A stretch of 63,645 nt of DNA, filler included, from Sluysia triapertura (taxonomy: Eukaryota), in assembly GCA_046118255.1 (NCBI GenBank). It is 5 parts of 5 records of this genome, joined end to end, with 100 filler letters (N's around TTAATTAATTAA, not from the genome) between each part and the next. Parts side by side here need not be neighbours in the genome. Positions count along the whole stretch, not along the records: positions 1 to 16,532 come from JBJNIA010201707.1; 4 more parts are not named here. One strand, given 5' to 3'. Within the stretch, counting starts at the first letter, position 1. Each line of letters opens with the position of its first letter. This document shows, piece after piece, positions 1 to 51,829 of this stretch. Both the position numbers and the translations under genes were made by a program. The notes under the pieces were generated by a model, which saw only the letters and a program-made list of their open reading frames with translations, was not told the origin of the DNA and searched no databases.

Positions 1-1
1 A

Positions 2-229
2 GATCTAAATTTAATAATTAAAGGAATAAAAATTAATGGGTATATTTGTCAATCAGGACATAAAAATATTGGGAATATTTATCAAAACGAACATCATAAT
101 CACGGCCATGTCATTCAAAACCATCAACAGAATTTAGGGAATGTTATTCAAAGAGATCAACAAAATTTAGGTGAAGTCATTCAAGATTTAAACCCTCGCC
201 TAGAGAAAGAACCAAAAATAGGTTTCTAA
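2..229 (+). CDS. 5'-truncated hypothetical protein with 11-aa Q/N/G repeats, ending DLNPRLEKEPKIGF
   Basis: Frame open from base 2 to TAA 227-229: ...QSGHKNIGNIY QNEHHNHGHVI QNHQQNLGNVI QRDQQNLGEVI QDLNPRLEKEPKIGF*. Confidence 0.7.
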   Translation, partial: DLNLIIKGIKINGYICQSGHKNIGNIYQNEHHNHGHVIQNHQQNLGNVIQRDQQNLGEVIQDLNPRLEKEPKIGF

Positions 230-244
230 AGGAGAATTTATGAA
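185..244 (+). repeat. 60-bp direct repeat, copy 1 (C-terminal tail + stop + RBS + next ATG)
   Basis: gatttaaaccctcgcctagagaaagaaccaaaaataggtttctaaaggagaatttatgaa is identical at 185-244 and 1873-1932. Confidence 0.97.
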
Positions 245-488
245 AATAAATAATATGCAAATAGAATGTTTAAAAAATGTTGAAAATCAACTAGCAGAAA
301 TATATAGCGATCTTATTAATTTAACAAATGAAATTAATAATGTTTATGTTCGTTCACAAGTAAATAGATTACTAAACAACATTAAAAGCACTAAGTGAGT
401 AGTTGAAAAAGTAGAATTAGATATTTCAGAAGAACAATTAATTCGAAATAGAAAAATTTTAGAAATAAAATTTGGTCATAAAAATTAG
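240..488 (+). CDS. Hypothetical helical protein (82 aa, code 4)
   Basis: AAGGAG RBS, ATG 240, one TGA=W, TAG 486-488. One extra A in the A5 run at 480-484 would give the C-terminus ...HKKLEF*. Confidence 0.7.
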
Positions 489-507
489 AATTCTAAAGGA
501 GAAATAT

Positions 508-849
508 ATGAAAACTAAAGAAATTATTAAAGTTGAAAATTTAGAACCAGTAAATGCTATAGATGATAATTATGAATTCAATGCTTATGAAGAATATAAA
601 GAAGCTCAAAATTTAATAAAAAACTATTTTCGCAAAACGAATCCGCACGAAAAAATCAGAGCGGGTGTTATTGCTAAAGAATATATTGTTGATAATTATC
701 CAATTATTAAACAACAAGCCCAAGACAAATGTTTAAATATGAAATGAATTGATAAATTCTACACATGTGAAATAGTTAAAAATACTTACGGAAAGCTATT
801 ATATGTGAAATTCAATGATCGAGAAATATTAAAAGAAATAGGAATATAG
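508..849 (+). CDS. Hypothetical protein (113 aa, code 4), paralog of the 16138 ORF
   Basis: AAGGAG RBS, ATG 508, reads through TGA 745-747 (KWIDKFY) to TAG 847-849; ends LKEIGI. Confidence 0.8.
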
Positions 850-876
850 GCGTAATTAAACCTAAACAAAACTAAA

Positions 877-1917
877 ATGGAAAATTTTAAATTATTAATT
901 TGAAAATATTTAGATGAATATAAAGGTGGCAAAAGATCTTTTATTCATTTTTACCAAGACATCATTCAACTAGAACCGGAAGGTTTTAGTGATTTTTGAA
1001 ATAACAATTTTAAAACAAAATATAATTCAACCAATTTTATTAGAAGATGCATTGGGGAATACGGTCGTAACAATAAAAACATCGTTTATTTCCGGAAAAC
1101 TGATAGCTACATGAAGATATTGCGCACTTACCAATATAAAAATGAAGTCGAATTTATTAATCAAACAAATGAGTCTTTACCTAATAAATATGATCACTCT
1201 GTAGAATATATGATTAAAACAAATTCCTTAAATATTGTGCAAGACCTAGAAAATTCTATTTATAGTTCTGTAACAGAAGGAAACCGAATAGATTCTATCG
1301 AAAAATTCGAACAAGCCCCTAATTCCTCTAGAGATAAAAAAGAAATTTTAAATATTTTAAAAGCTAGAGAATATTTAAATGAGAATAAGTCTAATGAAAA
1401 ATTAACTAAGGAAGATATTATTGTAATTTGAAGTTTAATATATCCTAAAGAATTGCATACATATAGAACTCAAAATGTTTTTATAACTGATGGATATAAG
1501 GCAATTGACCCATTATTGATTCAAAAAGAAATGAACAAATGAATCAAAGCATATAATATTAAACCTAAATCACCATCAGCGGCATTAATTAATTGTATGG
1601 TCCTGCATGCATGGTTTGAAAGCATTCACCCATTCCCTGATGGAAACGGTAGAACCGGAAGATTATTAAATGAATATTACTTTAAAATTCATAGATTAAC
1701 TAAAAATTGTACTTTAGATTACACGACATGAATTAATTTTCCTCCTTTATATAAACAAGAATTAAGAGCATTACAAGAAACAAAAAACATCGAAAATTAT
1801 ATAAAAACTAATATGAAATTTATTCATATAAATATTGAAAAATCTAAACAAATCAACAATACTAAATCAATTGATTTAAACCCTCGCCTAGAGAAAGAAC
1901 CAAAAATAGGTTTCTAA
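877..1917 (+). CDS. fic: Fic-domain protein (AMPylase-type), 346 aa
   Basis: Continuous code-4 ORF with canonical HPFPDGNGRTGR motif (~1627-1662) and an upstream SSVTEGN matching the (S/T)xxxE(G/N) inhibitory helix. Confidence 0.92.
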
Positions 1918-1932
1918 AGGAGAATTTATGAA
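1873..1932 (+). repeat. 60-bp direct repeat, copy 2
   Basis: Identical to 185-244; supplies the Fic C-terminus and the dnaG RBS/start. Confidence 0.97.
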
Positions 1933-3529
1933 TTTAAAATCAATCAATACTAAAGAATTCCTTAAAAAAATAGACATTGTTCAGGTAATAGGAAAGGAAC
2001 ATAACTTAATCAAAAAAGGTAGAAACTATATGTGTTTATGTCCATTCCATGCTGATAAGCACCCAAGTATGACCGTTTCACAATCTAAACAACTATATAA
2101 ATGTTTTTCATGCGGAGCTGGCGGCGATGCAATAAAATTTATTCAAGCTAGTAAAAAAATTTCATTCCCAGAAGCTATCAAATTACTATCTAAACAAAAC
2201 AACATAGATCTATCTAATATATCTTTATCAAAAAATATCAAAACATTCGATTTAAAATCTCAAATTTCATTTAAAGAATTAGAAAGATTTTATGAAATTA
2301 ATAATCAAGCTTTAAATTTCTATAAATATCAATTAAATAATAGCAAGCCTTGCCAAATTTATCTAAGTGAAAGACAAATAAATAATGATTCTATTAATAA
2401 ATATAAATTAGGTTATTCAGGTGAGTCAGAAAAATTTATCAATTATTTACTAGCTAAAGAATTTACAAACGAAGAAATTATTAAATATGGTTTAGGACAT
2501 TTAAATTCAGAAAATAAAATAGTTCCTAATTTTTACAATAGATTAATGTTTCCAATCTTTGATATTAACAATAATTGTGTAGGTTTTTCAGGAAGAGATA
2601 TAAATCAGAATCCACAAATTAAATATTTGAATTCGCCAGAGACACCTTATTACACAAAAGGAGATTATTTATTTAACTTAAACAATTCTAAAGATTTAAT
2701 TAAAAATAATAACCAAATCATAATTGTTGAGGGACCATTAGATTTAATATCTATTGGGCAAACAAAAGTTGAAAACACTGTTTGCTTATTCGGCACTTCG
2801 ATAACAAATCAACATATAAACCAAATTTCTAAATTAACAGAAAACATTGTTTTATCTTTAGACTCAGACAGTGCTGGTCAACTAGCTATAGAAAAATATC
2901 AAACTAAATTAAAAGATAAATTTAATCTCTATCGATTAAACTTAAACAATTCTAAAGATCCTGATGAATGAATAAAACAACATCCTAACAAATCAATATT
3001 AAACCAAATAGATTCTATTTCTGAACGAACGAATATTCAGATAATAGAAAATTCAAAAACAAATAAAGGAAATAATATGCAAATCAATCAATCAATGGAA
3101 GAATTTGAAAAACAAAAACAAGAATTTATTAATCAAATAGATTCTATTGCTAAACAAAACAACATCTCTTATGAGACAAATGATAAAGCTCAATTTGTTA
3201 AATTTACAAAAGATAACAAAACTTATCTAATTTGTACAAAATTTTATCCACGAAAAACAATCCCTAAAACAATTGAGGTCATTCCTCTTTCTAGCAGAAA
3301 TCAAATTGTTAATGAATTTAAGGTAAAATTAGGCCTAATTCAAGCAACTAAGAAAGAAGCAAATAAATCATACTCAAAAACAAAAACCAACGAAAAAACA
3401 ATAACTATTCCTATGGAGGAATACATAAAACTTTCTGAGTATAGATCTAAATATTTTAATTTAATAAAGTCTAAAGAATTCGAAAAAAAGCAAATTAATC
3501 TAGATAATTCACCAAAAATAGAATTCTAG
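1928..3529 (+). CDS. dnaG: DnaG-type DNA primase (CHC2 zinc finger + TOPRIM) with a 150-aa C-terminal extension, 533 aa
   Basis: CPFH..CFSC zinc-binding domain, KYLNSPET, VEGPLD, DSDSAG, KDPDEW. TGA 2969 is Trp and the frame continues without a stop into the 3077-3529 ORF. Confidence 0.92.
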
Positions 3530-3557
3530 ATATAATAAAAATTCAAACTTTAGTTTA

Positions 3558-3586
3558 AATAGTAGAAAAAAAATCTACTATTTTTT
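3558..3586 (+). terminator. Intrinsic terminator after dnaG
   Basis: aatagtaga-(A7)-tctactatt stem followed by a T run. Confidence 0.7.
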
Positions 3587-3784
3587 ATATATAAATTTAA
3601 TAATTACAGTTTTTAAAATATTTAAAATTTTAAGAAAACAACTAGTATAGTAAATATATATACTAATTAAAATTTAATTATATTTAACATTATTATTAAC
3701 ATTAATATAACATTAATATAACATTAGGAATTTTTAAATTCTTTTAAACCCTTTAATAGAACCATTTTTTTATATAATTTTTTT

Positions 3785-3869
3785 TTCAATAAAGGAAAAA
3801 CTATACTTCAATAAAGGAAAAACTATACTTCAATAAAGGAAAAACTATACTTCAATAAAGTAAAACTAT
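3785..3869. repeat. Replication origin iterons (3 perfect 22-bp units + 1 degenerate)
   Basis: ttcaataaaggaaaaactatac at 3785, 3807 and 3829, then ttcaataaagtaaaactat. An AT-rich region with 11-bp taacattaata repeats (~3697-3726) lies upstream, and rep lies immediately downstream. Confidence 0.9.
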
Positions 3870-3933
3870 TAATAAATAAGTAAAAATATATATAAAAATA
3901 CTTTTTAATAAAAATTTAGTATATAATTAAAAC

Positions 3934-4707
3934 ATGGTTAATAATATATATATGTCTAAAAAACTAGAAATGATTTTAAAAGATGAAAAAGTGATTATTA
4001 GTAATAATTTTGCTCAATCACATTTATCACACAATCTAAATAAAATACAGTGAAATATATTTTTCTATGGAATATTAAAAATAAATAAATGCAAAGATAA
4101 TATATGTAAATTTTATGTTCAAGATTTTTGTAATGATAGTGGTTTATTAATAAATAATTTTTATAATTATGCCGAATCTAATTTTAAATTTATTAGAACA
4201 TTAGCCATTACTACTAAAAATCCTAAATATAAAATATATTCAGAAACTAATATTTTTTCAAAAATAAATTATGAAGATGGAGAAATTTCTTTTGTAATAA
4301 ATCCTGATCTCCTAGATGAATTTAAAAATTTATCTAAAAATTGTACATACCAAGATTTTAAAACTTTTATAAGTTTTAATAGTAGTTATTCAAAAAGAAT
4401 ATATATTTATTTTCGAAGTTTATATATTCCTAATAAGGAAATTTCTAAAATTTTTACAATAGAAGAATTTCAATCAATTTTTGATGTTCAAAAAACATAT
4501 AAATCTACTAGTGATATTAAAAAAACAATAATAGATAATTCCTTAAATGATATAAATGAAAATTGTGAAGATTTTTTAATGTCTTATAGTGATATTAAAA
4601 AACCTAACAGTAAAAAAATAATAGGATTTAAATTTAAAGTTATACCGAGGGTTAAAGGTTTATTTGTGCAAGAACAACTAGAAAAAGGAGAAAGTGAATC
4701 CTTATAA
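3934..4707 (+). CDS. rep: Plasmid replication initiator, Rep_3/RepB family (~257 aa; alternative start 3952)
   Basis: Code-4 ORF absent from the ORF track. ISNNFAQS..LNKIQWNIF, SFVINPDL..F.NL, FNSSYSKRIY, IEEFQSIF..Y..IKK.II..L.DIN and KIIGFKF resemble Rep_3 winged-helix initiators; adjacent to iterons. Confidence 0.85.
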
Positions 4708-4717
4708 GGAGAAAGAT

Positions 4718-6589
4718 ATGAAAAAGTGATTAACTAGTTTAGGAATGATAGGAATTTTAAGTTTTGGAACAGGAACAATTACTCAAGCCACTTACAATAT
4801 TGTTTCACAAAATTTAAAGACAATAAATTTTACTTTTGAAAATGTCAATGTAAAAACTACTGCTCAATTTACCGGTATATATCAAGATAAATTTGGGTAT
4901 TTATGGGCTAAAGCTACACCTGATGTACTTAAAAAACCTCTAGTTGGAGGTCTATGAAAATCTACCGATGGAGGAAAAACTTTTACCCAAATAACTAACG
5001 GTATTGGAAGCGATTGAACTATTCTATTTATATTTCAAGACAAAAATGGTGTATATTGAACCGGCGGTTTACTAAAAGGTCTATGAAAATCTACCGATGG
5101 AGTAAATTTTACCCAAATAACTAGTAGCGGAATCGGAACCGATTGAAATATAAATGGTGTATTTCAAGACAAATCAGGAATCATATGAGTTGGTGTGTGT
5201 GGTGGTAATGTTCATCCCTATGAGCTATTAAAATCTACTGATGGAGGGAATACTTTTACCCCAGTGACCGTATCTAATGCATCATATAAAGACGTAACTA
5301 TTTATTTTCAAGATAAAAACGGATATATGTGACTTACTGCAAATGATGGGTTATATAAAACATCTGATGGAATAAATTTTATAAGAATTCCTGACACTCC
5401 CACAGTATCATTTAAATATGTCATTGAGCTTGCCCAAGATAAAGCTGGAAATATATGAGCTGCTATAGATATGAGAGGTCTATGAAAATCTACCGATGGA
5501 GTAAATTTTACAAATACCTGAGTAAATAATAGTTCCATATCGTGCATTCTTCAAGACAAAATAGGCATATATTGAATATCATATGGTGGATTATCTAAAT
5601 CTACCGATGGAGTAAATTTTACAGATATAACTTTTAACCAAGAAATCGGAGTGAATTCAATTTTTCAAGATGATATTGGAAATCTTTGAGTTGCCACCAC
5701 CGGCGGAATATTTAAATCTACTGATGAAAATTTTAATGGTGTAGGATATAAAACCCAAGGTAAAGAAGTGGTTGCCTTTTATCAAGGACAACCTTATAAG
5801 TTTATTAATGCCGATACATTGTTTTACGTTAATGATAGTGCAGTTGACAAAGTAACTATCAATGGGAAAGATTATATTAATACTGGTGAATTTAATTATA
5901 CGTTAACAGCAAAAGAAAATGGAGGAATATTTAATATTGTTGTATCTAAAAAAGACAAAACATCACAAAACTATTATTTTTATATTAAACAAAGTGTTAA
6001 CCCCTCAACTAACCAATTCTCCACAGATAATGCTTATAAATTAACGCAATATCTCGGACAATATAATTGAGGAAAAGAAACAATTAATTTCTTATTCGTT
6101 CAAGGAGATAATGGTTCACCGGATCTAAAATATATTTTAAACGACCCAATTTTAGATTTAACAACTTCTACTTATCAAAGTTGTGATATGGTGAACGGAA
6201 AAATTGTTCTTAAAGGACAAGCAACCAAGTTTCCCCAAAATAACGGGGTCATTTCCGGTTATGGGTTATATTTAATGACTATTCAAGACAAGCTAGGAAA
6301 TAAAATTCAATACTTATTACAAGTAGGTAAAACTACTGAAAAACCTATCGTTCAAAAAGCCGAGGATAAAAAGGCTAGTGGAACTTCGCTAATCCCCGGG
6401 AAACCAATTCCTCCAGCACCAAATAATTCTACAAATGGTTTAAATAATGGAACAATTGCTTTAATAGCTATGGCTTCTGTTGCAATTTTTTTACTAGCAT
6501 GCTCATTAACATATCGTTTTGGAATTGCCCGTAGAAAATATCTCAAAAAATTAAAACAACACAAGGAGGCAGGTGGTAAAGATGATTAG
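4718..6589 (+). CDS. Surface-anchored 7-bladed beta-propeller adhesin-like protein (623 aa)
   Basis: N-terminal MKKWLTSLGMIGILSFG signal; seven QD(K/D)xGxxW...(W/Y/F)KSTDG repeats (BNR/Asp-box and Reg_prop-like); Pro-rich linker; C-terminal TM helix and basic tail. Merges track ORFs 4745, 5768 and 6188. Confidence 0.85.
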
Positions 6590-6845
6590 TCAAATTATAT
6601 TTAATTCTGTAGAAGCACAAGTTTTTCAATGATTTATGTCAAATGTTATGGTTTGAATTTATGTAATCTTAGCAATTGGTGGTTTATGTGGTGTCGGTTG
6701 ACAAATATATCATTTAATTACTAAAGTTGATGAAAGACCAAAATACGTAAAACATTTAGTTTTTACAATAATTATTTTAGCAGTTGCATTAAGTTTATAT
6801 TCAATAATTATTTATGCAATAGTCCCAGCATACATTCAAGGTTAA
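6582..6845 (+). CDS. Small 2-TM pilin/VirB2-like protein (87 aa)
   Basis: GGAGG RBS, overlaps the adhesin stop, two hydrophobic helices, located before the VirB6- and VirB4-like genes. Confidence 0.6.
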
Positions 6846-6849
6846 ATTT

Positions 6850-7869
6850 ATGTCAGGAATCATATTAGACATTTTTAATTATATATTTTGACCTATAGCG
6901 CTAGTTATACTAGGTTTAATATATGGTTTGCAATGAGTGTTTAATTGATTGAGTGGTAGTTGATTATTTAACGGAATTTTAGGGGATTCAGTAATGAATA
7001 CTTTATGAATTGTGTTAATTCTAATAGGAACATGTTTCCTATTATTTGTAATTGCAATATTAATCTTTAAAGCTGTTAATAATCACAATATGACCATTCA
7101 TTTACAAAAAGGTTCTTTTCGCGCTTTTTGCTTATTTTTCTTTTGATTGATTTTACCAATTCTTTTTTTTAATAGCTTAATGGTCTTTGGTGGAATAATC
7201 GATTTAATATTTAAATCAGTTAATATCCAACAATTAAGTTTTGCTAATTTAGTACATCTAATGGGTTATACATCTAATGGTGCTTACAATAGTCACGCTA
7301 GTGAAAATTGAGATACTCCTCCTGTATGAGGGGAATATAATATCTTTGTTACAATAGTTGCCGGAGTTTGTGTAATAAAAATTCTTTTTGAATATTGCAT
7401 AATGTTAATTAAACGAATTTTTGATCTAATGATGCTATGATTTTCTTTTCCTATGGTATCAGCTCCTGTAGTTGCTGAAGAAAACGTTTCTAAATTACTA
7501 GCTTGAAAAGATGCCTTTGTTTCGACCCTTTGAACGGCCATCATTTGCATTATAAGTTTTCTAGTGTTTAGTTCTATAACACCATTAATTTTAAATAAAA
7601 TGCGTGAATCTTTATATGGCATTGCTTTCGGAGGTTGAATTTGATTTGCCTTTGTAATTATTTGGGTTATTGGTGGTGGTAAAGGATCAATCGCTGGAAT
7701 TCAAATGATTGTTCAAATTATGGGCACAAGCAATAATCCATACCATAATATCAATCAAGAAATGGGCAAAGCCGCCAGAATCGGTAAAAAACCATTGAGC
7801 TGAGGCAAAAAAGCAATCATGAATTCAAACCCCGTAACATCCGTTGCAAATAAGGTGATGAAATTATAA
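6850..7869 (+). CDS. Polytopic membrane protein, VirB6/TrbL-like (339 aa)
   Basis: Code-4 ORF with ~7 hydrophobic segments and an IKRIFDLMMLWFSFPMV motif typical of VirB6-like proteins; position in the tra operon. Confidence 0.7.
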
Positions 7870-7872
7870 GAT

Positions 7873-10251
7873 ATGACAAACTATGATAAACAAAAAGTAA
7901 TTATTCCTAAAAGTAGTAAAAAAGTAGGAATCTATTGATTTAAAAACCTTAACAGTTTTGAGCTGTTATGGCTAGTCGGTTTAGTAATTATTGATGTTTT
8001 TATTATCGGCTTCTCATCTGGGATTGCATTCAGAATCATTATCACTATTGTTTTATTCTTAATTGGTTTAATTTCAGTTTTGAATTTTAACGGTAAAAAA
8101 ATTTACCAGATGTTTTATATATACCTAAAATGACTCCATGTTATTAAGCATGATGTGATAGGTTATAAAGAAGTTAAAGATAATAATTATCAAATTAATA
8201 ATCAATATTTTAGTTGTTTTTCCATTAATGCTGAGTCTATTGACTTTCTATCAGAAGAAGATGTTCATAAAGTTTTAGCTAACTTTTGAAATTTAATCAA
8301 ATCTATCCCAAATGGGTGTTTTATCAAAATCCCCCAAACATATAATTTTGATAGTTATCATGAGATGATTAAAAATTTCTCTAAAAACTTTCTTTTAAAA
8401 GAAGAAAAAATAATCAATAACTTTACAAATTCTCAAAATGTTAGTGAAATTTACTTTGTCGTTTATGATTCTAAGCTAGAAAAATTAAACACTTATAAAA
8501 ACAAGTTAATTTCTTTTTTCAATAATAACTTTATTAAGTATTCTCAAACATCATTTGACAAAATAAGAAATTATTTTGGTTCTAATTGAACTTTTGAAAA
8601 TAAAAACTTTATTAAGAAAAATAAAGACAAAGGTTTTATTTGACAAGTTCGCGATATGGCCATTGAGAATAATTCATTCTTTTTAAGGGATTTGTTTAAT
8701 GTTAAAAATTGTTTTACTATTTTAAATTTCAAAGAAATTGAACAACAAACAGCTAAAAAACAATTAGATAATATCATTAATAAAATAAACTATAATCAAA
8801 CAAAATATTCCAAATCATCACAAATGATGGAATCAAACATGATCTTTGATGCAATAAATTTACAATTAAGTTCGATTGTTGATAACACCGATAGTTTTAA
8901 ATTAATCGATTTATATGTAGGATCTATCTCTTCAAATAAATCTGATTTAGTTGCCGCCGATGCGGCTATAAGAAATAGTTGTAAAATTGCCAACTTCTCT
9001 TTAGACACATTTAAAAATGAACAACACCTAATGCTTAAAAAAGCCTTATCATTCCAAAATACTTTAAACCGTAATTCATTAAATATGACAGGTGAAAGTT
9101 TAGCATGTGGTTACTTTTTATCTAAAAACATTTTAAAAGATGAAAAAGGTATGCTAGTTGGCGCTGATAACCAAGGAAACCCCGTATTTTTAAATATCTT
9201 TACAATTAATAATAAACGTAAACATCATAACTGTGTGTTGTTTGGAACGCCGGGGTCTGGCAAAACAACCCTCCTAAAAAAAATGTTAGTTTGAAATAAT
9301 TTAAACAAACATCGTATTTTTTTAATCGATGTCGAAGATGAATATTCCGAATGATTTAAAGAACAACAAGGGAAAATCATTGATTTAGCTGGTGGCAAAA
9401 CAACCATAAATCCTTTAGAAATTTTCCTAGATGAAGGAACTAGTTATAGAGCTAACATATCAACGCAATTGATTATGTTATCTAACTTTTTATTAATGTT
9501 GTATCCAGCAATCGAACAAGCCCCCAAAGAATACATTTTAAAAGTCATTGAAAAATTATATAAAAAACTACTAAAAAATGAAAATTCTAAAAATATAAAA
9601 TGATTCACATTTAGTGATGTGATCAAAGAAGCTAAGAAAGATAAAGAACAATATGAAATTGTTTCTTTCTACTTAGAACCATTAATTCAACGATATGGTG
9701 AATATTGAAACAAACCAACTAATATAACTATAAATTCTAAAGATATGTTGATTTGCGCTAGATTACAAAATAAAGACAATCAAGAAATCGATATGGATTC
9801 TAAAGTATTATCAATTCAAATTTATTTAATAACTAAGTATTTAAATAAAATCATCTACTCTGCTAGAGAAACAAACCAACGTTGCCTAATAATTTTAGAC
9901 GAAGCCCATAAGTTAGTAAGCGACGATAATGAATTCATCCTAACCTATTTATCAAACCTTTCTAAACGTGTAAGAAAATATAATACCGCTCTAATTTTAG
10001 CAACACAAAACATTTCTGATTTTACATCTAGTAAAACCAATGAAAAATATTTCTCAAACATTTTTAAATGTATGCAGTATTTCTTTTATGGTGGCATGCA
10101 TGCCCAAGATATATCTTCTCTAGATTCTTTATTAAAAGATTCTGGAGGGTTAACTGATTCCCAAAAATCTTTTTTAACTATTGCTGAAAAAGGCCAGTTC
10201 ATTTTACAAACAGATAATACTAATTTCATTAGCTTAAAGGTGTTGATATAA
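7873..10251 (+). CDS. virB4: VirB4/TraE conjugation ATPase with N-terminal PrgI/VirB3-like TM domain (792 aa)
   Basis: Continuous in code 4. N-terminal VIIPK.. plus 2 TM; HNCVLFGTPGSGKT Walker A; IILDEAH Walker B; KRVRKYN..LATQ. Confidence 0.92.
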
Positions 10252-10253
10252 CT

Positions 10254-11837
10254 ATGAAAACAAAAATAATTAATTTTTTACTAGATAACAAGTGAAAAAT
10301 ATTTTGAAATATATTAGGAATCATTCTTTTATTCATAATCTTAGGCTTTATATTTAATGCCTTTAGATGAATATCATTAGACCATTTAAAGGGTTCGTTC
10401 ATAAAAGAGATTTACGCTCCCCTATTTGGTTGAGGTTTCTTAGCTGCTATTGTAATAGTTATTGGTGGTAACATCTACTTTTATTTTCATCCATCTAGAA
10501 ATAGATCTATAAAAGCTAAACCTCTTTTGAAAGTAAACATCTTAGAACACGATAAAGACGGTTATGTTGTTACAAGTAAAAAATCTAATGGCAAAATCAC
10601 TTCTGAAATCATTCAAGATACACATGCTTTAATTGTTGGTGGTACACGTAGTGGCAAAACGCAAGGAATTGCTCTTCCATCGATATTTATGAATATTCAT
10701 TCATCTAACCCACCAAGTTTGGTTATAACTGATCCTAAAGGGGAAATATACCAACAAATGAAAGGTTATTTAGCAAAAGAAAATTATAATATTCAATGTT
10801 TGAATTTAACAAATGATTCTACAGACCATGACATTTATTGAAATCCCTTAGAAAAGTTTTATTTAGAATTTAAAAAAGATAAGTCTAATGAAAATTTAAT
10901 GGACATTAGAACTGAAATCGAAGAATATTTAGAAAAAATATTAATCAAAGCAGAAAATGAAAAAGCATCTTTTTTTACCATTTCTGCTAATACATTAATT
11001 AACGATGTAATTATTGAATTCATGAAATTAAAAACAACGACCGTTAAAGATTTTAATATGTCAGCAATTTATAATATTTTTAAAAACGTTACAAATTTTA
11101 CTCAATTTGTTTATTCTCTGCCAGTAAATGAACAATATAAATTCAAAGAATATACTCAAGCCACAGGCCAATTTGACGGTATAAGAGGAACTGCCGCTCA
11201 AAGCTTGAAGTTTTTTTCTAAAGCTAGAATAGAAAAAATAACTTCTAAAAACACTTTAGAATTATCAAAATTTAGAGCCGATAAAAATGTTATCTTTATT
11301 ATCTTTAAAGAAGATGATGAAATTTCCCATTTTTTAGTTTCCGCTTTCATTGCCGAATTATATAAAGTTTTCCGTGAAGACAAAACTCATAGAAAAATAT
11401 ATTTGTTTTTAGATGAATTCGGTAATTTACCAATAATTAATAACTTTGAAAAAGCCTTATCATTGGGTGCTGGTTATGGAATTTACTTTTGTTTTGTATT
11501 GCAAACAATTTCCCAACTAAAACTTTACGCAAGTTTTAACTCTGGAAAAGAACAAATCATTTTAGATAATGTAAATTGTCTATTTTTACTAGATATCAAA
11601 AATAATAAAGATGCTGATTATTTTTCCAAACGTTTAAGAACCAAAAATATTACGGTTACATCATCAACAAGATCTGCTAAAGGAGATATTTCCACACACG
11701 AATCTTCTCGTGAAGTTGCAATTATCTCTAGCAACGATTTATTAAGTTTAGAAAAATGAGAATGTGTTGTTCAAACACCTAAATCATATCCAAGAAAAAT
11801 TAAACTTCTACCTTTCTATCAGTTTGATTTAAAATAA
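10254..11837 (+). CDS. virD4: VirD4/TraG type IV coupling protein (527 aa)
   Basis: 2 N-terminal TM; HALIVGGTRSGKTQ; TDPKGE; WNPL; LDEFGNL; LQTISQL. Confidence 0.93.
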
Positions 11838-11940
11838 TTTTTTAAAATTAAATAGTTAATAGTATAATTATTGTGTGTTCTTAAATATCACCAAACTTAT
11901 ATAAATATAAAAATATACATTTTGGAATAGTATCATTTTT

Positions 11941-11968
11941 AAAAAAACCCTTTTTTAAGGGTTTTTTT
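11941..11968. terminator. Bidirectional intrinsic terminator
   Basis: aaaaaaaccctt-tttt-aagggttttttt between convergent genes. Confidence 0.8.
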
Positions 11969-12053
11969 ATATTTATAGGTAAACATACTATGGTTTATAA
12001 GGAAGTGTCAAAAATAGTAAATAAAACCTATTTAAAAGGAAAAATTATTATCT

Positions 12054-12470
12054 TTAGTAATAATTTTTCCCCATTAGAAAGTTTTTGCCTTTCGAATTCA
12101 AATAATTTTCTTTGATAATTATTTGTTTTAAATAAATTAATCTATTGTTATGAACATTTAATTTTTTATATTCAATAGCCATGAAGATAAAACTAGTTAT
12201 AGCTAATACAAATAGTATAGCTAAAACTATTAAAGGAATATACAATGTGTTTAATGGATTATATGCTGTTATAAACATGTTTTGGTTAAACAGTACAGTA
12301 ACTAAAACTAAATACAAAACATTTGCAATTACAAATCTCTCAAAAATAAACATTCAAACATATTTAAATTTATATTTTTTAAATGGTTTAAGAATTCATT
12401 TAATTAGAAAAACTAAAGGAATAATAAGTAAAATTTTTACTACTATTCAAAATAAATAACCAGTACTCAT
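12054..12470 (-). CDS. Small multi-TM membrane protein (138 aa, code 4)
   Basis: AGGAG RBS. MSTGYLFWIVVKILLIIPLVFLIKW... extends track ORF 12054-12353 through TGAs; three hydrophobic segments. Confidence 0.7.
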
Positions 12471-12472
12471 AT

Positions 12473-12925
12473 CTACTCCTCCCTTCTTTTTTTCAAAAGC
12501 ATTTCTTTTTTCATTCGACGAATTTTAAATGCTCGTTCGATAAAGTTCATTTGAATTAAGTCGTTGAATTCATCTTTTAGTTTTTGATTTTCATCACCTA
12601 ATTTTTCATAAGTTAACAAATTTTGCTCTAGTAATTTTTTACTAGCTTCAATATTCAATCGTGTTTCACGTTCATCTTTTACCGCCTTTTCGGCTTTTTG
12701 AAGGTCAGCTTTAATTTGCTCTAATTCCTCTTTTAGAGATATAACTTGTGTATTAGTTGTAATAATTCTTTTTATAGGATTGGCCTCAATGTCCTTTTTA
12801 AAGATTAAATATTCTTTTTCCGTCATGGCCCCAACGATATTTAATTTTTTCTTTCTATCAACAACAGCCTTATCCGTTAAATGAAATTCCTCTGCTAAAT
12901 TTCTAATTGAATAATTTTTTTTCAT
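12473..12925 (-). CDS. N-terminal HTH + coiled-coil protein (candidate plasmid partition/regulatory protein)
   Basis: GAGGAG RBS; SIRNLAEEFHLTDKAV HTH followed by a long heptad coiled coil, an architecture like staphylococcal pSK1 Par. Confidence 0.6.
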   Translation of the reverse strand: MKKNYSIRNLAEEFHLTDKAVVDRKKKLNIVGAMTEKEYLIFKKDIEANPIKRIITTNTQVISLKEELEQIKADLQKAEKAVKDERETRLNIEASKKLLEQNLLTYEKLGDENQKLKDEFNDLIQMNFIERAFKIRRMKKEMLLKKRREE

Positions 12926-13121
12926 AATGTACTCCTCACAAATATATTATACTACATATGTTAATTAAGCATAATAGTATAACATCAAAGAAACCATTAT
13001 AAAATAAAGATTATTTTTATATATAGTCCTAAAAATGATATAGTAATACACCCACTATAGCACTATAGTAAAGTATATTTACAACCATATTTTTTTCTAC
13101 TAGAAATGGCGCCTAGCTAAT

Positions 13122-13149
13122 AAAAAATCTCAGAGTTTTTCTCTGAGAT
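13122..13149 (-). terminator. Terminator after the ssb-like gene
   Basis: atctcagag-ttttt-ctctgagat stem with a T run on the minus strand. Confidence 0.75.
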
Positions 13150-13175
13150 CTAAATTTAATGAAAATATAAATTAG

Positions 13176-13436
13176 TTAGATAAATGTTTCAAATCGCTCT
13201 GCAAACATATAATATTTATTATCTAATTCAAATATATAACCTTGAATTCCTAATAAACATCCTATATGTAATTCTTTAAAACCTTCAAGTTCTTTCTCTA
13301 GTAAAACTTTAATATCAGAATATTCTTTGAATTTAGCGATTTGATATCTAACTGTTAATAATTTATATTTTTCATTATTTAAATTTACGTAATCTATATC
13401 AAGTAAATTCCCAATTACGATGCAATCATTTAGCAT
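13176..13436 (-). CDS. ssb: Short SSB-like OB-fold protein (86 aa, no acidic tail)
   Basis: MLNxxxxIGNL start, GCLLGIQGYI and AERFETF patterns typical of SSB; AAGGAG RBS. Confidence 0.65.
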   Translation of the reverse strand: MLNDCIVIGNLLDIDYVNLNNEKYKLLTVRYQIAKFKEYSDIKVLLEKELEGFKELHIGCLLGIQGYIFELDNKYYMFAERFETFI

Positions 13437-13558
13437 ATTATTCTCCTTATAAACCTAATTTTTAGGTCCCTTTGAAATAAAATTGCCAGAGCAATTAAAA
13501 TAAAGGTAACTAAAAATTTATAAGAGAATAATCTAATGAATAGAGTAATTGGGAATTT
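13405..13558. promoter_or_regulatory. Long imperfect hairpin A overlapping the ssb RBS/start
   Basis: aaattcccaattac/gtaattgggaattt (14 bp perfect), attattctc.ttataaa/tttataagagaataat, apical aattgc-caga-gcaatt. Confidence 0.75.
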
Positions 13559-13666
13559 TTAGATATTTAATTATTAGCGCGCCATTTACTATTTAGCGAA
13601 AGCTAAATTCAGCAGCCTTTGTTTTTAATAATTTATTAACCTTTTTTCTCAGTGTTTAAAAAAATA

Positions 13667-13689
13667 AACCTGAGAAAAATCTCAGGGTT
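13667..13689 (-). terminator. Terminator after the 13703-14107 gene
   Basis: cctgaga-aaaa-tctcagg stem with a T-rich run on the minus strand. Confidence 0.65.
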
Positions 13690-13702
13690 AATTTATAAAT
13701 TA

Positions 13703-14107
13703 TTATGATTTAATAAGTGATTTTAAAGTTTCTTGAATTGCTAGTGCCTCTTGGTACTCTTCGCCAGTTAAATTTAAAACTGAAAAAGACAACAATTTCT
13801 CAAAAATAGTAATTTCTTTACCTTCAAAGATGCCTTCTTTTTTGATGATTTCAATTATTGCAATATTAACTTCGGCTATTGTTTTATGAATTGAATTTAA
13901 ATCAGCACCTAAGGCATCTTTTAATTTGTTAATGAAATCTACACCTTGATTAGGAGAAAGTTGTTCTTTTTCAACTAAGTTTTGAATTTTTTCGAAAGTA
14001 GCACGAGCACGATTAAGCAAATCATTTCTAAAATTATTCTTTTTAGAAATTTCAAATTCGAAACCTTTAATCACTTTCATTAAATCTTTATTTTCATCTA
14101 GTAACAT
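13703..14107 (-). CDS. Hypothetical helical protein (134 aa)
   Basis: AAGGA RBS, clean ORF, own terminator, upstream hairpin module shared with ssb. Confidence 0.7.
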   Translation of the reverse strand: MLLDENKDLMKVIKGFEFEISKKNNFRNDLLNRARATFEKIQNLVEKEQLSPNQGVDFINKLKDALGADLNSIHKTIAEVNIAIIEIIKKEGIFEGKEITIFEKLLSFSVLNLTGEEYQEALAIQETLKSLIKS

Positions 14108-14220
14108 ATTAATCCTTTTGACCTAATTTTTTAGGTCTCGCAGAGATAAAATTGCCAGAGCAATTAAAATAAGAGACCCTAAAAAATATTCAAGATTAAT
14201 ATGGCTACTGAAAATTAAAA
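14088..14220. promoter_or_regulatory. Long imperfect hairpin B overlapping the start of the 14107 gene
   Basis: catattaatc/gattaatatg, ttttttaggtctc/gagaccctaaaaaa, and the same 27-nt apical core as hairpin A. Confidence 0.75.
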
Positions 14221-14464
14221 TAAAAACAACTGCTGAAAAAGATTATAATAAAGATGTTTACTTTAAATTAATTTGGAGTAAATATTCTAGTAACATCAAA
14301 ATCACTTTTGATCAAAATTTAAGTAGCTGAAAAGCTACTTTTTTTGTATATCAAAACCACAAAAATAACCTAATTTGTTTATATATATTTATATATAAAT
14401 ATATATAACATTTTTTTCTTATCTCGTTTCCCTTTTTACTAGTATAATTAGAGAGTGAATCAAA

Positions 14465-16129
14465 ATGAAATATTTTCAATCTCAAATTTCCGCCCCTGAA
14501 ATCCCTTTCAAGTCTAATATTGAAGAGCAGCTTCAATCTCAGCTTGAAAATTTGGGCGAACGCGCCGCGAAAAAACGCGGCGAAAAAATTCCTGACGGAA
14601 TTTTTTTAAAGTTTAATAATCTTATAGAAAAAATTTTTGCGGTGTGTACTACTGAGATTCCGCCAGTGGCGCAATTGGGTTTGTTTACCTCAGGCAATGA
14701 AAATGAACTTAAAAATAAAATAGAAACTAAATTTAAAACTATCTTAAAACAAAATAATATTAAAAAATCTAATTACAAAATTAAAACAAAATTTAATAAA
14801 AAAGAAAACAAATATGAAACAATAGCTTACTGAAATAAAAATGCTAGTAACAAATCTAAAACAAATAGAATTCATATTAAATCAGAATTCAAAACTAGAA
14901 ATACTTTTTATAAATCAGAAAACGTTTCTAAATTACTAGCTAGTAAAGAAATTTTAAATAATCCACTATTAAAAATCACTAAAGAAAAAATATCTCTAGA
15001 AGATAATGTCTTAATAAGAGCAAAATTTGTAGACATAAATACAAAAAACTATAAATTTTACACATCATCTACTAAAGACGATAGCTATCTAGATTACATT
15101 TTAAGAAAACAAGCAATCTCTAAAGAAAATAATAATATAATTGAAATTCCAAACAGCACTGAAAAAGAAAATTATCTAGATTATATGGTCAATCGAACAA
15201 AAACTGAGGGCTGCTTTGATAAACATGGAAACTATTATGATTCCCAAAAATTGAAAAGCGAAAGCATTCAACTAGAAAAAAATTCTAAAAATGGTGTTTT
15301 TGTTTGAGATATAGTTATAAATTTTAAACAAGACTTTTCTAATGAATATGATCTATATGAACCAGATAAATATTTAAGAAAAATTATCGCTGAAGAAGTA
15401 ACTAACATTTATAAGAATTCAAATATAGATCCTAAAAATCTCCAAATGAAATTTGTCTTTCACACTAATACAGAAAATCCCCACTTTCATTGTTTCGTTA
15501 ATGAAATTAGACACTTAAATAAAAAAGCTAAACTACAAAATGATATGGGGGATATATTTATTCATGCCAAACAAAATATTATTTCAAGAATTATTAGTTG
15601 TGAAGAAAGAAATATTGAACTTAAAAATAAACCAAAAATAAACTATTATTATTCGGTAGCTTATAAAAAAACTCATAACCATGAAGTTGCATTAAAATAC
15701 TCAGAATTAAAAATTTATGAATTAAATTTAGATAAAGAATTAAATTTAAATTCTAAAAAAATAGAAATTTTAGGAAGTTATGAACAATTAAAAGCAGAAT
15801 ATTTAAAAACTTTAAAAAACAAAATCATCTTAGCTAAAGACGATGATATGCAAATTTGTTTTACAAAATTAAAACCTCAACAAAAACAAACTCTATCTCC
15901 TTTAGAAAGAAAACAAAAACAAATAAATGATTCCCTATATTTAGAGCTGATAAAAATGAGATCACTAAATGAAATGAAGGCCAACATTAAATTAACAAAA
16001 GAAATAATCAAACATAGTTATGATATTCAACACAACATCGATATCAATAAAACTTTATCTACTAAAAACCAACTATCAAAAACATCTAAAACTCATTCAA
16101 AAGAGAATGATTTAGATATTTCTTATTAG
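14465..16129 (+). CDS. mobL: MobL-family relaxase (up to 554 aa; true start uncertain)
   Basis: Continuous in code 4. YLDYILR, YLDYMVNR..EGCFD, VWDIVINF and FHTNTENPHFH (HxNTxNxHxH) are MOBL motifs. Confidence 0.85.
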
Positions 16130-16137
16130 GAGTAATT

Positions 16138-16532
16138 ATGGATGACGAATTAAAAAATTACAACAAGGCATGTGAATTTATATCTAAATATTTTTTAGAA
16201 AAAAATTCTCAACAAAAACTATCTCTAGCTATCAAAGCTATAAAATTCATAAGATCTAACTACGATGAAATTATGGATGAAGTTAGTTATCAAGAAAAAA
16301 ATTACAGTACTAAGTGAATTGATAAATTCTATAATGCAAAAATAGCTACAAATCAACAAACAAAACAAAAATATTTATCTTTTGCTGTTAAGTCTTTAAG
16401 TGGAACGCACATTTCACCTGAACAAAAAATAGCTAGAATAGATAAATTTATTAACCAAATAGATTCTATTGCTAAACAAAACAACATCTCTTATGAGACA
16501 AATGATAAAGCTCAATTTGTTAAATTTACAAA
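16138..16532 (+). CDS. 3'-truncated chimeric hypothetical protein
   Basis: AGGAG RBS. N-part is homologous to 508-849 (..YF..N..K....NY..I....KWIDKFY); last 77 bp are identical to 3134-3210 in the DnaG extension. Confidence 0.8.
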
Positions 16533-16632
16533 NNNNNNNNNNNNNNNNNNNNNNNNNNNNNNNNNNNNNNNNNNNNTTAATTAATTAANNNNNNNNNNNN
16601 NNNNNNNNNNNNNNNNNNNNNNNNNNNNNNNN
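16533..16632. other. Artificial contig linker
   Basis: N-run + TTAATTAATTAA + N-run, 100 nt. Confidence 0.99.
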
Positions 16633-28170: not shown

Positions 28171-28270
28171 NNNNNNNNNNNNNNNNNNNNNNNNNNNNNN
28201 NNNNNNNNNNNNNNTTAATTAATTAANNNNNNNNNNNNNNNNNNNNNNNNNNNNNNNNNNNNNNNNNNNN
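28171..28270. other. Artificial contig linker
   Basis: N-run + TTAATTAATTAA + N-run. Confidence 0.99.
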
Positions 28271-30866: not shown

Positions 30867-31110
30867 GTGATGTATCAAGTGCAAATAAAATGTTTGATAG
30901 AAAGAAATCCTGAAGTTGGTCATATTTCAAATAATCCAGGAGGTATGAATCATCTCACTCGACTTTATCGAGATGTTCAAGAATCATTAGTGGAAGCTAC
31001 TACTGGTTCTAATCCTTTTGCTAATCTAGGAAGTCGAAGATCTAATATTACAAACTCAATAAATAATCGCTCTGAAAATAACGGGCCATTATCAAATCCT
31101 TGGTCAACTA
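30867..31110 (+). pseudogene. Ubiquilin-like fragment
   Basis: LIERNPEVGHISNNP/GGMNHLTRLYRDVQE..NPFANL..ENNGPLSNPW matches the ubiquilin STI1 region with an internal deletion; no UBL or UBA domain seen. Confidence 0.65.
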
Positions 31111-31809
31111 CAAGTAATAATAGAAATACCAATATAATTGATTCTACAAATACATTTGCCAATTTTGTTCAAATTTTTATCATTAATGTTTGTATTAACG
31201 ATACCATATGTCACTTAAATACGTTGCAAACAAATTCCAAATTTAAGACACGTATTCATCCACAAGTGAAAGTTTTAGATACTGATAGATTCTGTGCTAC
31301 AGAAAGAAGATGGATGATTATCAAATTTCTCCAGAATAAAGTCAAGGATAGTCGTCATGAAACAATACTGACAGTGAAATTTTATTTTATTTATCTAAAT
31401 CCTTATTTTCATCTTTTAATTTTTTAGAATTTGATTCCAGAGTGAGGTCTACTGACGTACAGCCAGATGCAACAGAAAAATCATTAGATAAAACTTTAAA
31501 AATTATTAGTTATAATTTCATTATATTGTACAATTTAATAAATAATAGTTTTCCTATATTTTTTGAATAAAGATTTAAAATTTAAGTTCCTTGAGTTAAA
31601 AAACAAGTTAATGTATCATATGTTATCAATTTTCTACTACTAAGTGACAAACTTGGTAATGATCTACTTATCAAAATTCAGTATCGTAATTTTACAGCAA
31701 GTTATAAATTATTATCACTCGGACATAATGATCTTAATGTAACCCTATTAAGTTATCATAAAATAACATCTAACACTCTTAATTGGTCTTATCATATAAA
31801 TCCAATAAT

Positions 31810-40569: not shown

Positions 40570-40669
40570 NNNNNNNNNNNNNNNNNNNNNNNNNNNNNNN
40601 NNNNNNNNNNNNNTTAATTAATTAANNNNNNNNNNNNNNNNNNNNNNNNNNNNNNNNNNNNNNNNNNNN
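40570..40669. other. Artificial contig linker
   Basis: N-run + TTAATTAATTAA + N-run. Confidence 0.99.
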
Positions 40670-42080: not shown

Positions 42081-44538
42081 ATGAATTATCTTGAATCACA
42101 AGGTGACGAAAGTTTAAATCATAGTTTAGACAGTTTAGTATTACCGCCACCACCGTTATCAATATATGGTGATGTTCCTATTAATACGAACAAAACTGAT
42201 ACTTCAATTGATCCGACTGAATACAATTTTAAACATTCTCATGACGATTACGTTTTAAAACCACCGGTTTTTTTCTTAACAGATAAAGATATCTTAGACT
42301 ATTACAATTTTTTACAAAATTTAACGATTTTAAAAGAACAAAATGATAATAAAGTTGACTATGATGAATTTTTAAATAATAAATCATTGCCAGATAAAAA
42401 ATGGCGTTTGTTTATTAGTTTTCAACGTCTTTATGATGATTATTCAGAAATTTTTGAACAACTTCAAATAAAACTAAAAATTATTGAACATTATGAAATG
42501 GAATATTCAAATTTTAAAGTTAAAAAATCACAAAAAGATGTATCTATTCAAACGCATTATGAAAGACAAGCGAATAAATTAACTGAAACAGTAAAAAAAA
42601 ACAAAAGAATGTAAATCAAAAATGAAGATAAAAAAATCGTTATTTAATTTTGGAGTTTGTTTAAAGAAAACTCCAAAAAAGAAAATACCAAAATTCATTA
42701 TCACTAACACAAACTCTAATGAACATTTAGAAGTATATGAATCAATGTTTACAAAACGAAATCAAATTTTTCATGAAATATTCATTGATGAAAATTCAAC
42801 CAAATTGCCTATTACTATTCCAATAGCGTTAGAATTATTGATACCAAAAATTCAAAGTGATATTGAAAAAATATTTAAATGTTGCCCATTTTTATGTGAC
42901 CCTTTGGAAATTGTTGCTGAACTACGTAATTGTGATTATGATTATAAAAAGTGTATTAATTATTTTCAAGGTACAAAACAGTTGCGATCTTATTATATCA
43001 ACAATTTAAAATTATCGGAATCTATTGAAGAAAATCATGAAATAGAAAATATAATACTGAAAGAAAAATCTAAAAGTGCTATTTTCACAGCAGATATTAC
43101 TAGATTACAAATTAATACAAATGAAGATGACCAATTTTTGTCAACAAATAATAATAAATGTGAAAAAAACATAAATACTTATGTTCAAACTGAAAATAAA
43201 GATATATTAAAGCTTTATTTTAATATTAATAAAAAAATTAAAACTACAAAGCAGTTAAATAGTAATTTATATGAAGATATTCGTTATTTTAGTAATCAAT
43301 TAAATAAAGTATTCGAATCATTAAAAATTCATATGATTACCGTTATTAATCAATGCAGTGAACGTTTGGTAACAAATGAACAAAAATTACGTTTGTTAGC
43401 GTTATCTCGTCAAAATGATGAATTAAAGTTAAAATTGAAAGAAGAAGAAAAACGTCGTCGGCAAGTTTATAATCGTATGCAAGAACAGTTAGGTAATATT
43501 CGTGTTTATTGTCGTTGTCGAAAATTAAATGATGAAGAAAATGTATTTGAATATGTTGCTGATGATACATTGATTTTAACAACAATATCTGGTGAACGAT
43601 TTGAATTTGACAAATTATTTCAACCAGGAATTTCACAAGGTGAATTATATGATGAATTCCGTCCATTAGTTATGTCATTTATTGATGGATATAATGTATG
43701 TTTTATTACATATGGTGGGGAAGCAAGTGGCAAAACATATACATTAATCGGTGAAAATAAGGATCCTAGTCAACAAGGAATTATGCAACGTTCGTTGACC
43801 ACCATTTTAAAAGAACAGCGTGTCCGTCAACGTGACTGGGATTATAAAATAACGGCTTGTTTAGTTGAAATATATAATGATAATTGCATTGATGTATTAA
43901 GTGGAGAAGTTGGTGTTCAGTTATACGTGGATAGTGGAATGGAAGTTGCCTACCAAAAATTGAAAAGTGTACCAATTACTAATGAAGCTGATGCAGATGC
44001 TTTGATACAAGTGTGTACAGTAAAACGTAAAATTGCTCGCACAGCACTGAATCCAGCTTCCTCCAGATCTCATTTGATCATTTTGATTCGATTGCAAGGT
44101 ACCTCAAAAATTCACGGTGAACAAATTTGTAGTTTTCTTTGTTTATGTGACTTAGCTGGATTTGAAGACATAATAAAAGCAGAAACACAAACAAACAAAG
44201 TATTAAGTAAAGAAGCTGGTTATATTAATCGTTCTTTAACTGCTTTCAATCGTGTATTTGTAAGTTTAAAGCGTCAAGACCCAAATACAGTTTGTTATCG
44301 GGAAACTAAATTAACTCATTTACTGAAACCTTTTTTAACTAATTCAGGGAAATGTGCTTTAATTGTTACAGTTAGAAATGATAAGCGTAGTATTGGTTCT
44401 ACGCATAATACTTTGAGATTTGGAAAAGAAACTAGAGGAGTAACATTGGGTAAAGCAAGACGGCAAGTCAACATGAATAATACGTGTTATACTTCCAGCA
44501 CTTGTACTCAATTCAATAGTCATGCTTCAATTAATTAA
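42081..44538 (+). CDS. Kinesin-14 (C-terminal motor, KIFC-like), intronless; split by a 1-nt frameshift at the A-run 42593-42601
   Basis: Coiled coil + RRQVYNRMQEQLGNIRVYCR neck, GGEASGKT P-loop, EIYN, NPASSRSH, DLAGFE, INRSL, YRETKLTHLL, TLRFG. Confidence 0.88.
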
Positions 44539-51729: not shown

Positions 51730-51829
51730 NNNNNNNNNNNNNNNNNNNNNNNNNNNNNNNNNNNNNNNNNNNNTTAATTAATTAANNNNNNNNNNNNNNN
51801 NNNNNNNNNNNNNNNNNNNNNNNNNNNNN
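51730..51829. other. Artificial contig linker
   Basis: N-run + TTAATTAATTAA + N-run. Confidence 0.99.

Follow-up and report, generated by a model that had tools for sequence, protein, structure and literature searches.

The stretch of DNA analysed here (hereafter the window) comprises 63,645 nucleotides, filler included, of the Sluysia triapertura assembly GCA_046118255.1, and its first part, positions 1 to 16,532 (JBJNIA010201707.1), is gene-dense under translation table 4 (code 4). Under this table, in which TGA encodes tryptophan, long frames that contain in-frame TGA stay open and match known families. Judging from these matches, this part is a code-4 Mollicute conjugative plasmid with a Rep3 initiator, VirB4, VirD4 and a MOBL relaxase. 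The transfer set consists of VirB4, VirD4, a VirB6-like protein and the relaxase (T4SS-DNA_transf and MobL above the Pfam cut-off, the NCBIfam Mbov models below cut-off), and these matches bear out the Mollicute conjugation machine of an original prediction made from this DNA. The same prediction held that six unrelated genes of the plasmid share a C-terminal tail that labels their products for transfer, and it is this tail that concerns us here. The open reading frames (ORFs) and repeats that bear on it are the following (RBS, ribosome-binding site):

2 to 229, + strand: ORF 2-229, 5' open, or else with ATT 32 as its start behind an RBS (20-25); N-x-G-x-V/I-x-Q repeats, five of 11 residues each, and after them the common tail
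185 to 244, + strand: exact 60-bp repeat, copy 1; 14 tail codons, stop, RBS and start of ORF240
240 to 488, + strand: ORF240, 82 residues, without family; C-terminus GHKN; tail-like DNA at 479-503, out of frame
508 to 849, + strand: ORF508, 113 residues, paralogue of the N-terminal half of ORF16138 (35% over 75 residues); C-terminus EIGI, a weak match to the tail
877 to 1917, + strand: Fic-domain protein (Pfam Fic, E 1.4e-12) with full active-site motif, inhibitory-type motif at residues 130-135, and the common tail
1873 to 1932, + strand: exact 60-bp repeat, copy 2; Fic tail, stop, RBS and start of dnaG
1928 to 3529, + strand: DnaG-type primase with zinc finger, catalytic core and Toprim (TIGR01391, 343.7 bits versus a cut-off of 283.6); 150-residue C-terminal region with a related tail
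3077 to 3529, + strand: the C-terminal part of DnaG, which has an RBS-like site and an ATG to itself; without family
7873 to 10251, + strand: VirB4-like ATPase, Mbov_0397-like (E 1.6e-111, below cut-off); best plasmid match 29%
10254 to 11837, + strand: VirD4-like coupling protein, by family matches
14465 to 16129, + strand: MOBL relaxase (Pfam MobL, E 1.4e-14) with an N-terminal extension of about 175 residues; C-terminus DISY, a weak match
16138 to 16532, + strand: ORF16138, an N-terminal half like ORF508 joined to the beginning of the DnaG C-terminal region; runs into the gap, its own C-terminus outside the sequence

The tail letters originally quoted are correct: ORF 2-229 and Fic both end in EKEPKIGF, DnaG in DNSPKIEF, ORF508 in LKEIGI and MobL in ENDLDISY. 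The ends given for structural genes also hold (rep ESESL, adhesin GGKDD, pilin AYIQG, VirD4 QFDLK), and VirB4 (KVLI), named as a partial exception, indeed matches the loose pattern. The tails of ORF 2-229 and Fic represent one event, since both lie in the same exact 60-bp direct repeat (185-244 and 1873-1932). It takes in each gene's final 14 codons with the stop, then the RBS and 5 bases from the start of the following gene; in the Logan contigs it forms a 60-nt unit that can be entered by two paths and left by two. The DnaG tail, S-P-K-I-E-F, reaches a BLOSUM score of 20 against Fic over the last six residues, a value attained by 0.035% of chromosomal gene pairs; wherever the two tails have the same residue they also have the same codon, the rarer TTC and CTA included, which indicates an older copy of the same DNA. 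A Logan contig covering 1903-3163 shows no difference from the dnaG region of the window.

The remaining candidates fare less well. ORF508 and MobL score only 7 and 5 against Fic; among control pairs 5.7% attain a score of 6 and 9.8% one of 4, so both are weak, within a range open to 5-10% of control pairs, and MobL finds no support as a bearer of the same tag. ORF240 had been counted after one A was restored in a homopolymer, a correction that finds no support: the Logan contig over 215-926 is free of differing letters and of gaps (0 of each), and the real end is GHKN. As this contig matches the window fully, the tail-like DNA at ORF240 is out of frame, and an assembly error is rejected as far as the contigs of that one run reach, a run that may itself be the source of the window's assembly. 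Of the six genes claimed, three therefore stand (ORF 2-229, Fic and DnaG, from two events), two are weak and one is unconfirmed; one more, ORF16138, lies partly beyond the gap and, from its fused structure, may end in the same tail as DnaG. Within the plasmid the tail has spread as part of a copied segment that comprises the end of a gene, its stop and the RBS that follows, once as the 60-bp repeat and earlier as the copy on the DnaG C-terminal region. Because the copied end includes stop and RBS, the new gene acquires the tail and the operon stays unbroken.

Three observations touch these carriers. A variant copy of ORF 2-229 in sequencing run X1 has 4 of its 7 listed variant letters synonymous in the frame of this ORF, compared with 0 and 1 in the other two frames. 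The five Q/N/H-rich 11-residue repeats of the same ORF bear a weak likeness to curlin (CsgB, E 8e-5, 22 bits versus a cut-off of 165; Atlas curlin clusters, 0.81), with no Pfam match and a single-sequence structure model consisting of one helix. The DnaG C-terminal region (3077-3529) may also be produced as a separate protein, to judge from its own start signals; its structure model is poor (pLDDT 40), and no homologues were found in a search limited to near lengths.

We then looked at tails in other Mollicute elements. A MOBL profile that we built is present in 64 of 398 Mycoplasmatales genomes, and for the survey we took 60 of the 90 MOBL matches listed, each as a stretch of at most 20 kb that includes the relaxase, with 36 arbitrary chromosomal stretches from MOBL-carrying genomes as controls. 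ORF calling relied on a simple script and the recognition of membrane proteins on hydropathy, with the borders of the elements left unmapped; ORFs below 80 residues, ORFs containing N and pairs with homologous bodies were left out of the counts. About a dozen of the 60 loci (numbered with L) have a tail family of their own on unrelated soluble proteins, with ends such as xEMTM, PKLKM or EEPTR, and the following families were read from them:

L066: D/E-E-M-E-M
L086-L088: E-M-T-L/M
L102: P-K-L/M-K-M
L075: K-L-I/T-M
L046: K-x-L-K-M
L073 and L077: E-E-x-x-R

In a test that assumes no motif, tails were shared by 89 of 4,025 non-homologous soluble pairs within a locus, compared with 491 of 60,000 pairs drawn from different loci and 21 of 2,174 control pairs, and the signal drops to 23 pairs when it is taken 30 residues inward from the end. 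An end of the form charged-hydrophobic-x-hydrophobic, a pattern that is partly post hoc since it was widened after the loci had been seen, occurs in 31 of 417 soluble genes co-oriented with the relaxase, in 1 of 198 membrane or Vir proteins and in 9 of 394 chromosomal soluble proteins; counted by family, the figures are 16/248, 0/87 and 6/281 (p=0.016 and 0.015). Ends of the form P-K-hydrophobic-x-hydrophobic were found in 3 of 1,124 proteins of MOBL loci (L075, L102 and L142) and in 0 of 611 controls. The predicted enrichment among relaxase-linked genes thus appears with the broad pattern but not with the strict [KED][IL]x[FIY] (2/417 versus 4/394), and K-[IL]-[GE]-F, put forward as a general signal, was found in 0 of 1,280 other proteins. 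What survives of the shared-tail idea is its recurrence on unrelated soluble proteins in other MOBL elements, though not in the exact form seen in the window: other Mollicute MOBL elements keep charged-hydrophobic-x-hydrophobic tails of their own, in frame.

Is it the peptide or the DNA that is kept? In 11 hand-picked tail sets (51 genes, 50 of them in the codon count) all tails are in frame, 63 of 202 identical non-Met residues are encoded by different codons, and the DNA past the stop mostly diverges immediately. A Shine-Dalgarno-like word confined to the tail was seen in 3 of the 51 genes. In L066, too, unrelated genes carry exact repeats, 40-50 nt long, of tail, stop and RBS, which parallels the window. 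The DnaG tail of the window is followed by no gene, and is therefore not a by-product of an RBS. As for the L073 tails of the E-E-x-x-R type, those of the genes ending near 2988, 5125, 5800, 9062 and 9459 overlap terminator-like hairpins whose stems change in step, and other genes of that element reach the same Arg end via other codons and with no hairpin.

Tail carriers with a recognizable family include SSB (L066, L067), DnaG (L073, L075, L077), a leucine-rich-repeat (LRR) protein and a weak DnaC-like loader; most have no family. The LRR protein, of BspA type (L046:6951-8051), bears the tail of its element and is the sole carrier that hints at a host-facing role. Tail-bearing ORFs of L075, L087 and L088 are small and very acidic, with no family match, and may resemble DNA-mimic anti-restriction proteins. 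None of 30 other Mollicute Fic proteins has such an end, so the Fic of the window must have gained its tail; the two chromosomal DnaGs have none either (0/2). VbhT-like FicT proteins have a separate upstream antitoxin with an (S/T)xxxE(G/N) motif. In the plasmid this motif is absent from ORF 2-229, ORF240 and ORF508 and lies instead inside Fic, at residues 130-135; since Fic combines a full catalytic motif with this internal inhibitory-type one, it is more likely to be self-regulated than to be a VbhT-type toxin.

How might all this be read? In our estimate the chances are about even that the tail peptide serves as a signal for co-transfer and that terminal reassortment has spread it. Under this reading the P-K-I-x-F end on ORF 2-229, Fic and DnaG would be a C-terminal label for export, together with the DNA, into a recipient bacterium; the VirD4/VirB4 machine of the plasmid would read it, with VirD4 as the probable receptor. 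The primase would then prime second-strand synthesis in the recipient, where Fic would act as well, and ORF508 and MobL would carry a decayed or different form of the tail. A recipient bacterium is a more likely destination than a host cell; nothing in the analysis points to the delivery to host cells that had been offered as an option. A more far-reaching version, which we put forward only tentatively, is that such elements export a dedicated set of proteins by an element-specific C-terminal code of 4-8 residues, read by the element's own VirD4 and passed on via a tail-stop-RBS cassette; here the recipients would receive a primase, a Fic enzyme and a repeat peptide of curli-like type.

The main rival, unlikely in our view, is that the tail is a degron, i.e. 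that a hydrophobic or aromatic end makes primase, Fic and SSB short-lived and is spread by the same copying of gene ends. In Mycoplasma pneumoniae, protein levels are indeed lower when the last residue is hydrophobic or aromatic, partly by degradation (PMC7246954; this and later citations refer to the accessible parts of the papers), and such ends, rare on chromosomal genes, would befit transient or toxic proteins. A host protease signal, however, should be host-wide, whereas each element has tails of its own, some with Arg or Glu as the last residue, and the tmRNA tags of four element-carrying Mollicute genomes end in xFA or LAA, unlike the tails of the elements. The peptide might also be incidental, if the 60-bp module of stop and RBS is a recombination or translation-coupling site that was duplicated with the entry of the 1,688-bp block ORF240-ORF508-Fic. 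The complete DNA identity (100%) beyond the stop and the same rare codons in the DnaG copy would agree with this, as would the out-of-frame copy at ORF240, the similar non-coding stretch at 13461, the mosaic genes elsewhere in the plasmid (the 88-bp repeat, ORF508/ORF16138) and a weak fold of the repeat over the RBS (z -1.3 to -1.6). Yet 3 of the 4 copies in coding regions are in frame with the same last residue, no RBS or gene lies 3' of the DnaG copy, and elsewhere the residues are kept while codons and downstream DNA change, so that we regard such a junction as rather improbable.

Finally, the tail could dock its carriers onto a partner inside the cell, such as the replisome, the relaxosome or an element-encoded adaptor, instead of serving export. 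The C-terminal tail of SSB, acidic and then hydrophobic, is a docking peptide of this kind, the tail is borne by SSB, primase and a helicase-loader-like protein, among others, and many tails are acidic and then hydrophobic. On the other hand, an LRR protein, a curli-like peptide and many orphans are among the carriers too, the tails of L046 and L102 are basic, and those of the window range in net charge from -1 to +3; docking thus seems to us quite improbable.

Several findings weigh against the tail as a co-transfer signal. The window holds only two solid events, its VirB4 matches the loose pattern, and there is no close relative in which conservation of the tail could be followed, the best VirB4 and VirD4 matches being 29-33% identical. 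The DNA side contributes the out-of-frame occurrence at ORF240, a similar non-coding stretch before an RBS at 13461 (- strand; score 26, compared with 28 for a chance match inside virD4) and the overlap of several L073 tails with terminator hairpins. In the survey, the pattern peculiar to the window, [KED][IL]x[FIY], is not enriched elsewhere (2/417 versus 4/394), and the contrast at the level of loci is weak, with at least three similar pairs in 12 of 60 versus 3 of 36. Of the 17 stretches at the nearest VirD4 genes, L194 alone has a tail family (of acidic type), which makes the trait patchy. The element DnaG lacks a fitting end in 4 of 7 other loci (L002, L050-L052). Relaxases mostly lack the tail of their own element, 5 of 59 matching the pattern, and the relaxase would therefore need another signal.

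C-terminal signals of type IV secretion systems and terminal reassortment are already known; the Mollicute case is apparently unreported. Co-transferred proteins include the Sog primase, ParM and VbhT, and their signals include charged or hydrophobic C-terminal motifs (PMC11288057). Sog (IncI1) and TraC (RP4) are co-transferred primases, and the F plasmid has SSB, ParA and PsiB as substrates (PMC11288057, PMC5512222, PMC8406263); as in the window, primase and establishment proteins are found here on a conjugative element, with C-terminal signals in some substrates. Those systems are Gram-negative and have no common duplicated tail, whereas the primase in the window is a DnaG of chromosomal type to which a new C-terminal region is attached, and the host is wall-less. 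The closest parallel for the mode of acquisition is VbhT of the Bartonella plasmid pVbh, a Fic protein of a conjugative plasmid that obtained its signal, a whole BID domain, from the relaxase (TraA) by terminal reassortment (PMC5675462). The piece gained in the window is different, measuring 14 residues and being common to a small repeat protein and a primase rather than to the relaxase; the Fic of the window contains no BID (only Fic in Pfam) and has its own inhibitory-type motif. Signals of type IV secretion systems have no general consensus, and the E-block of Legionella Dot/Icm (PMC10025392) resembles the tails of L066 and L086-L088 in being a short terminal signal with an acidic run and then a hydrophobic end. 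Dot/Icm is, however, a type IVB, host-targeting system with extra adaptors (PMC10025392), and the tail of the window is not Glu-rich. Nor does the window resemble the Arg-rich signal of Agrobacterium type, its tail having one Arg and the last 25 residues a net charge of -1 to +3.

Mycoplasma ICEs (integrative and conjugative elements) and Spiroplasma plasmids of the pSci type share with the window a minimal VirB4/VirB6-like/VirD4 module (PMC6030558, PMC12857230), and MOBL adjoins dnaG in NZ_LR214953.1; the plasmid analysed here differs in being a Rep3-iteron replicon about 30% identical to its nearest relatives. For Mollicute elements, neither protein substrates nor a C-terminal signal are reported in the accessible text of PMC6030558, PMC12205969 and PMC12857230. 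Prediction of such signals is difficult in type IV secretion generally, and if the co-transfer reading is true, an element-specific tail would list candidate co-transferred proteins directly from sequence, substrate recognition by a minimal mycoplasma conjugation machine would become testable, and the tail could be used as a tag for protein delivery into mycoplasmas. The window catches terminal reassortment while the DNA copies are still identical.

The other features of the plasmid are these:

3123 to 3210, + strand: 88-bp repeat (99%), common to the broken end of ORF16138
3785 to 3865, + strand: 22-bp iteron-like repeats upstream of rep
3934 to 4707, + strand: Rep3 initiator, by family match
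4694 to 6589, + strand: membrane-anchored beta-propeller repeat protein (Reg_prop match, repeats), a putative adhesin
6850 to 7869, + strand: Mbov_0396-like (VirB6-like) membrane protein, E 2.6e-18, slightly below cut-off

The contig breaks inside the 88-bp repeat (16445-16532), and the first 15 nt of the window equal the end of a terminator-like hairpin at 13146, where a second match of at least 14 nt is expected at about 4% of random positions. The circular map on which the tail-bearing genes would follow the relaxase is a supposition; Rep3 and iteron-like repeats are present, and both contig ends lie at or near repeats. The plasmid is distant from its known relatives: VirB4 is 29% identical to Spiroplasma plasmid proteins (34 homologues overall, at 21-32%), the nearest VirD4 proteins in the 398 Mycoplasmatales genomes are 27-33% identical, and MobL has 77 homologues of 23-39% identity, none better than E 2e-11 among 1.84 billion representatives. 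Fic has 16 homologues, aligned across the catalytic region. The DNA of the 60-bp repeat is absent from the viral and metagenome contigs searched, and VirD4 and MobL scans of viral contigs gave no matches; a MobL scan of metagenomes found 13 distant loci, which are outside the tail counts. Rfam has no match in the window, and a promoter scan stayed at chance level.

The rest of the window looks eukaryotic, and the plasmid is therefore probably a co-sequenced symbiont contig. After 16532 the DNA is eukaryote-like, with a kinesin (42622-44538) and a ubiquilin-like sequence (30867-31427), and paired N runs with a 12-nt linker at 16533-16632, 28171-28270, 40570-40669 and 51730-51829 were read as scaffold joins. 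An old insertion into the eukaryote genome we judge unlikely, given the intact frames, the N gap at the join and a Logan depth of 6-10 on the plasmid pieces. In Logan the stretch is present in one sequencing run, with no RNA run among those listed. Low-depth contigs with substitutions at 1-147, 4020-4140 and 8307-8356 (run X1) suggest a second related plasmid or strain.

Three further observations concern the region around mobL. The extension of MobL (14465-14989), about 175 extra N-terminal residues, is absent in nearly all aligned relatives and has no PHROG match. On the - strand, a 73-bp repeat (13444-13516 and 14113-14185, 78% identical) lies 5' of the RBS of two genes facing away from mobL; its copies form long stem-loops (z -3.2 and -2.7), the stem changes between them look compensatory by eye, and there is no Rfam match. 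We consider it a candidate single-strand promoter or priming signal of a leading region. Beside it, at 13176-13436 (- strand), an ORF of 86 residues has, by eye, the look of a truncated SSB, with no match in Pfam, NCBIfam or PHROG.

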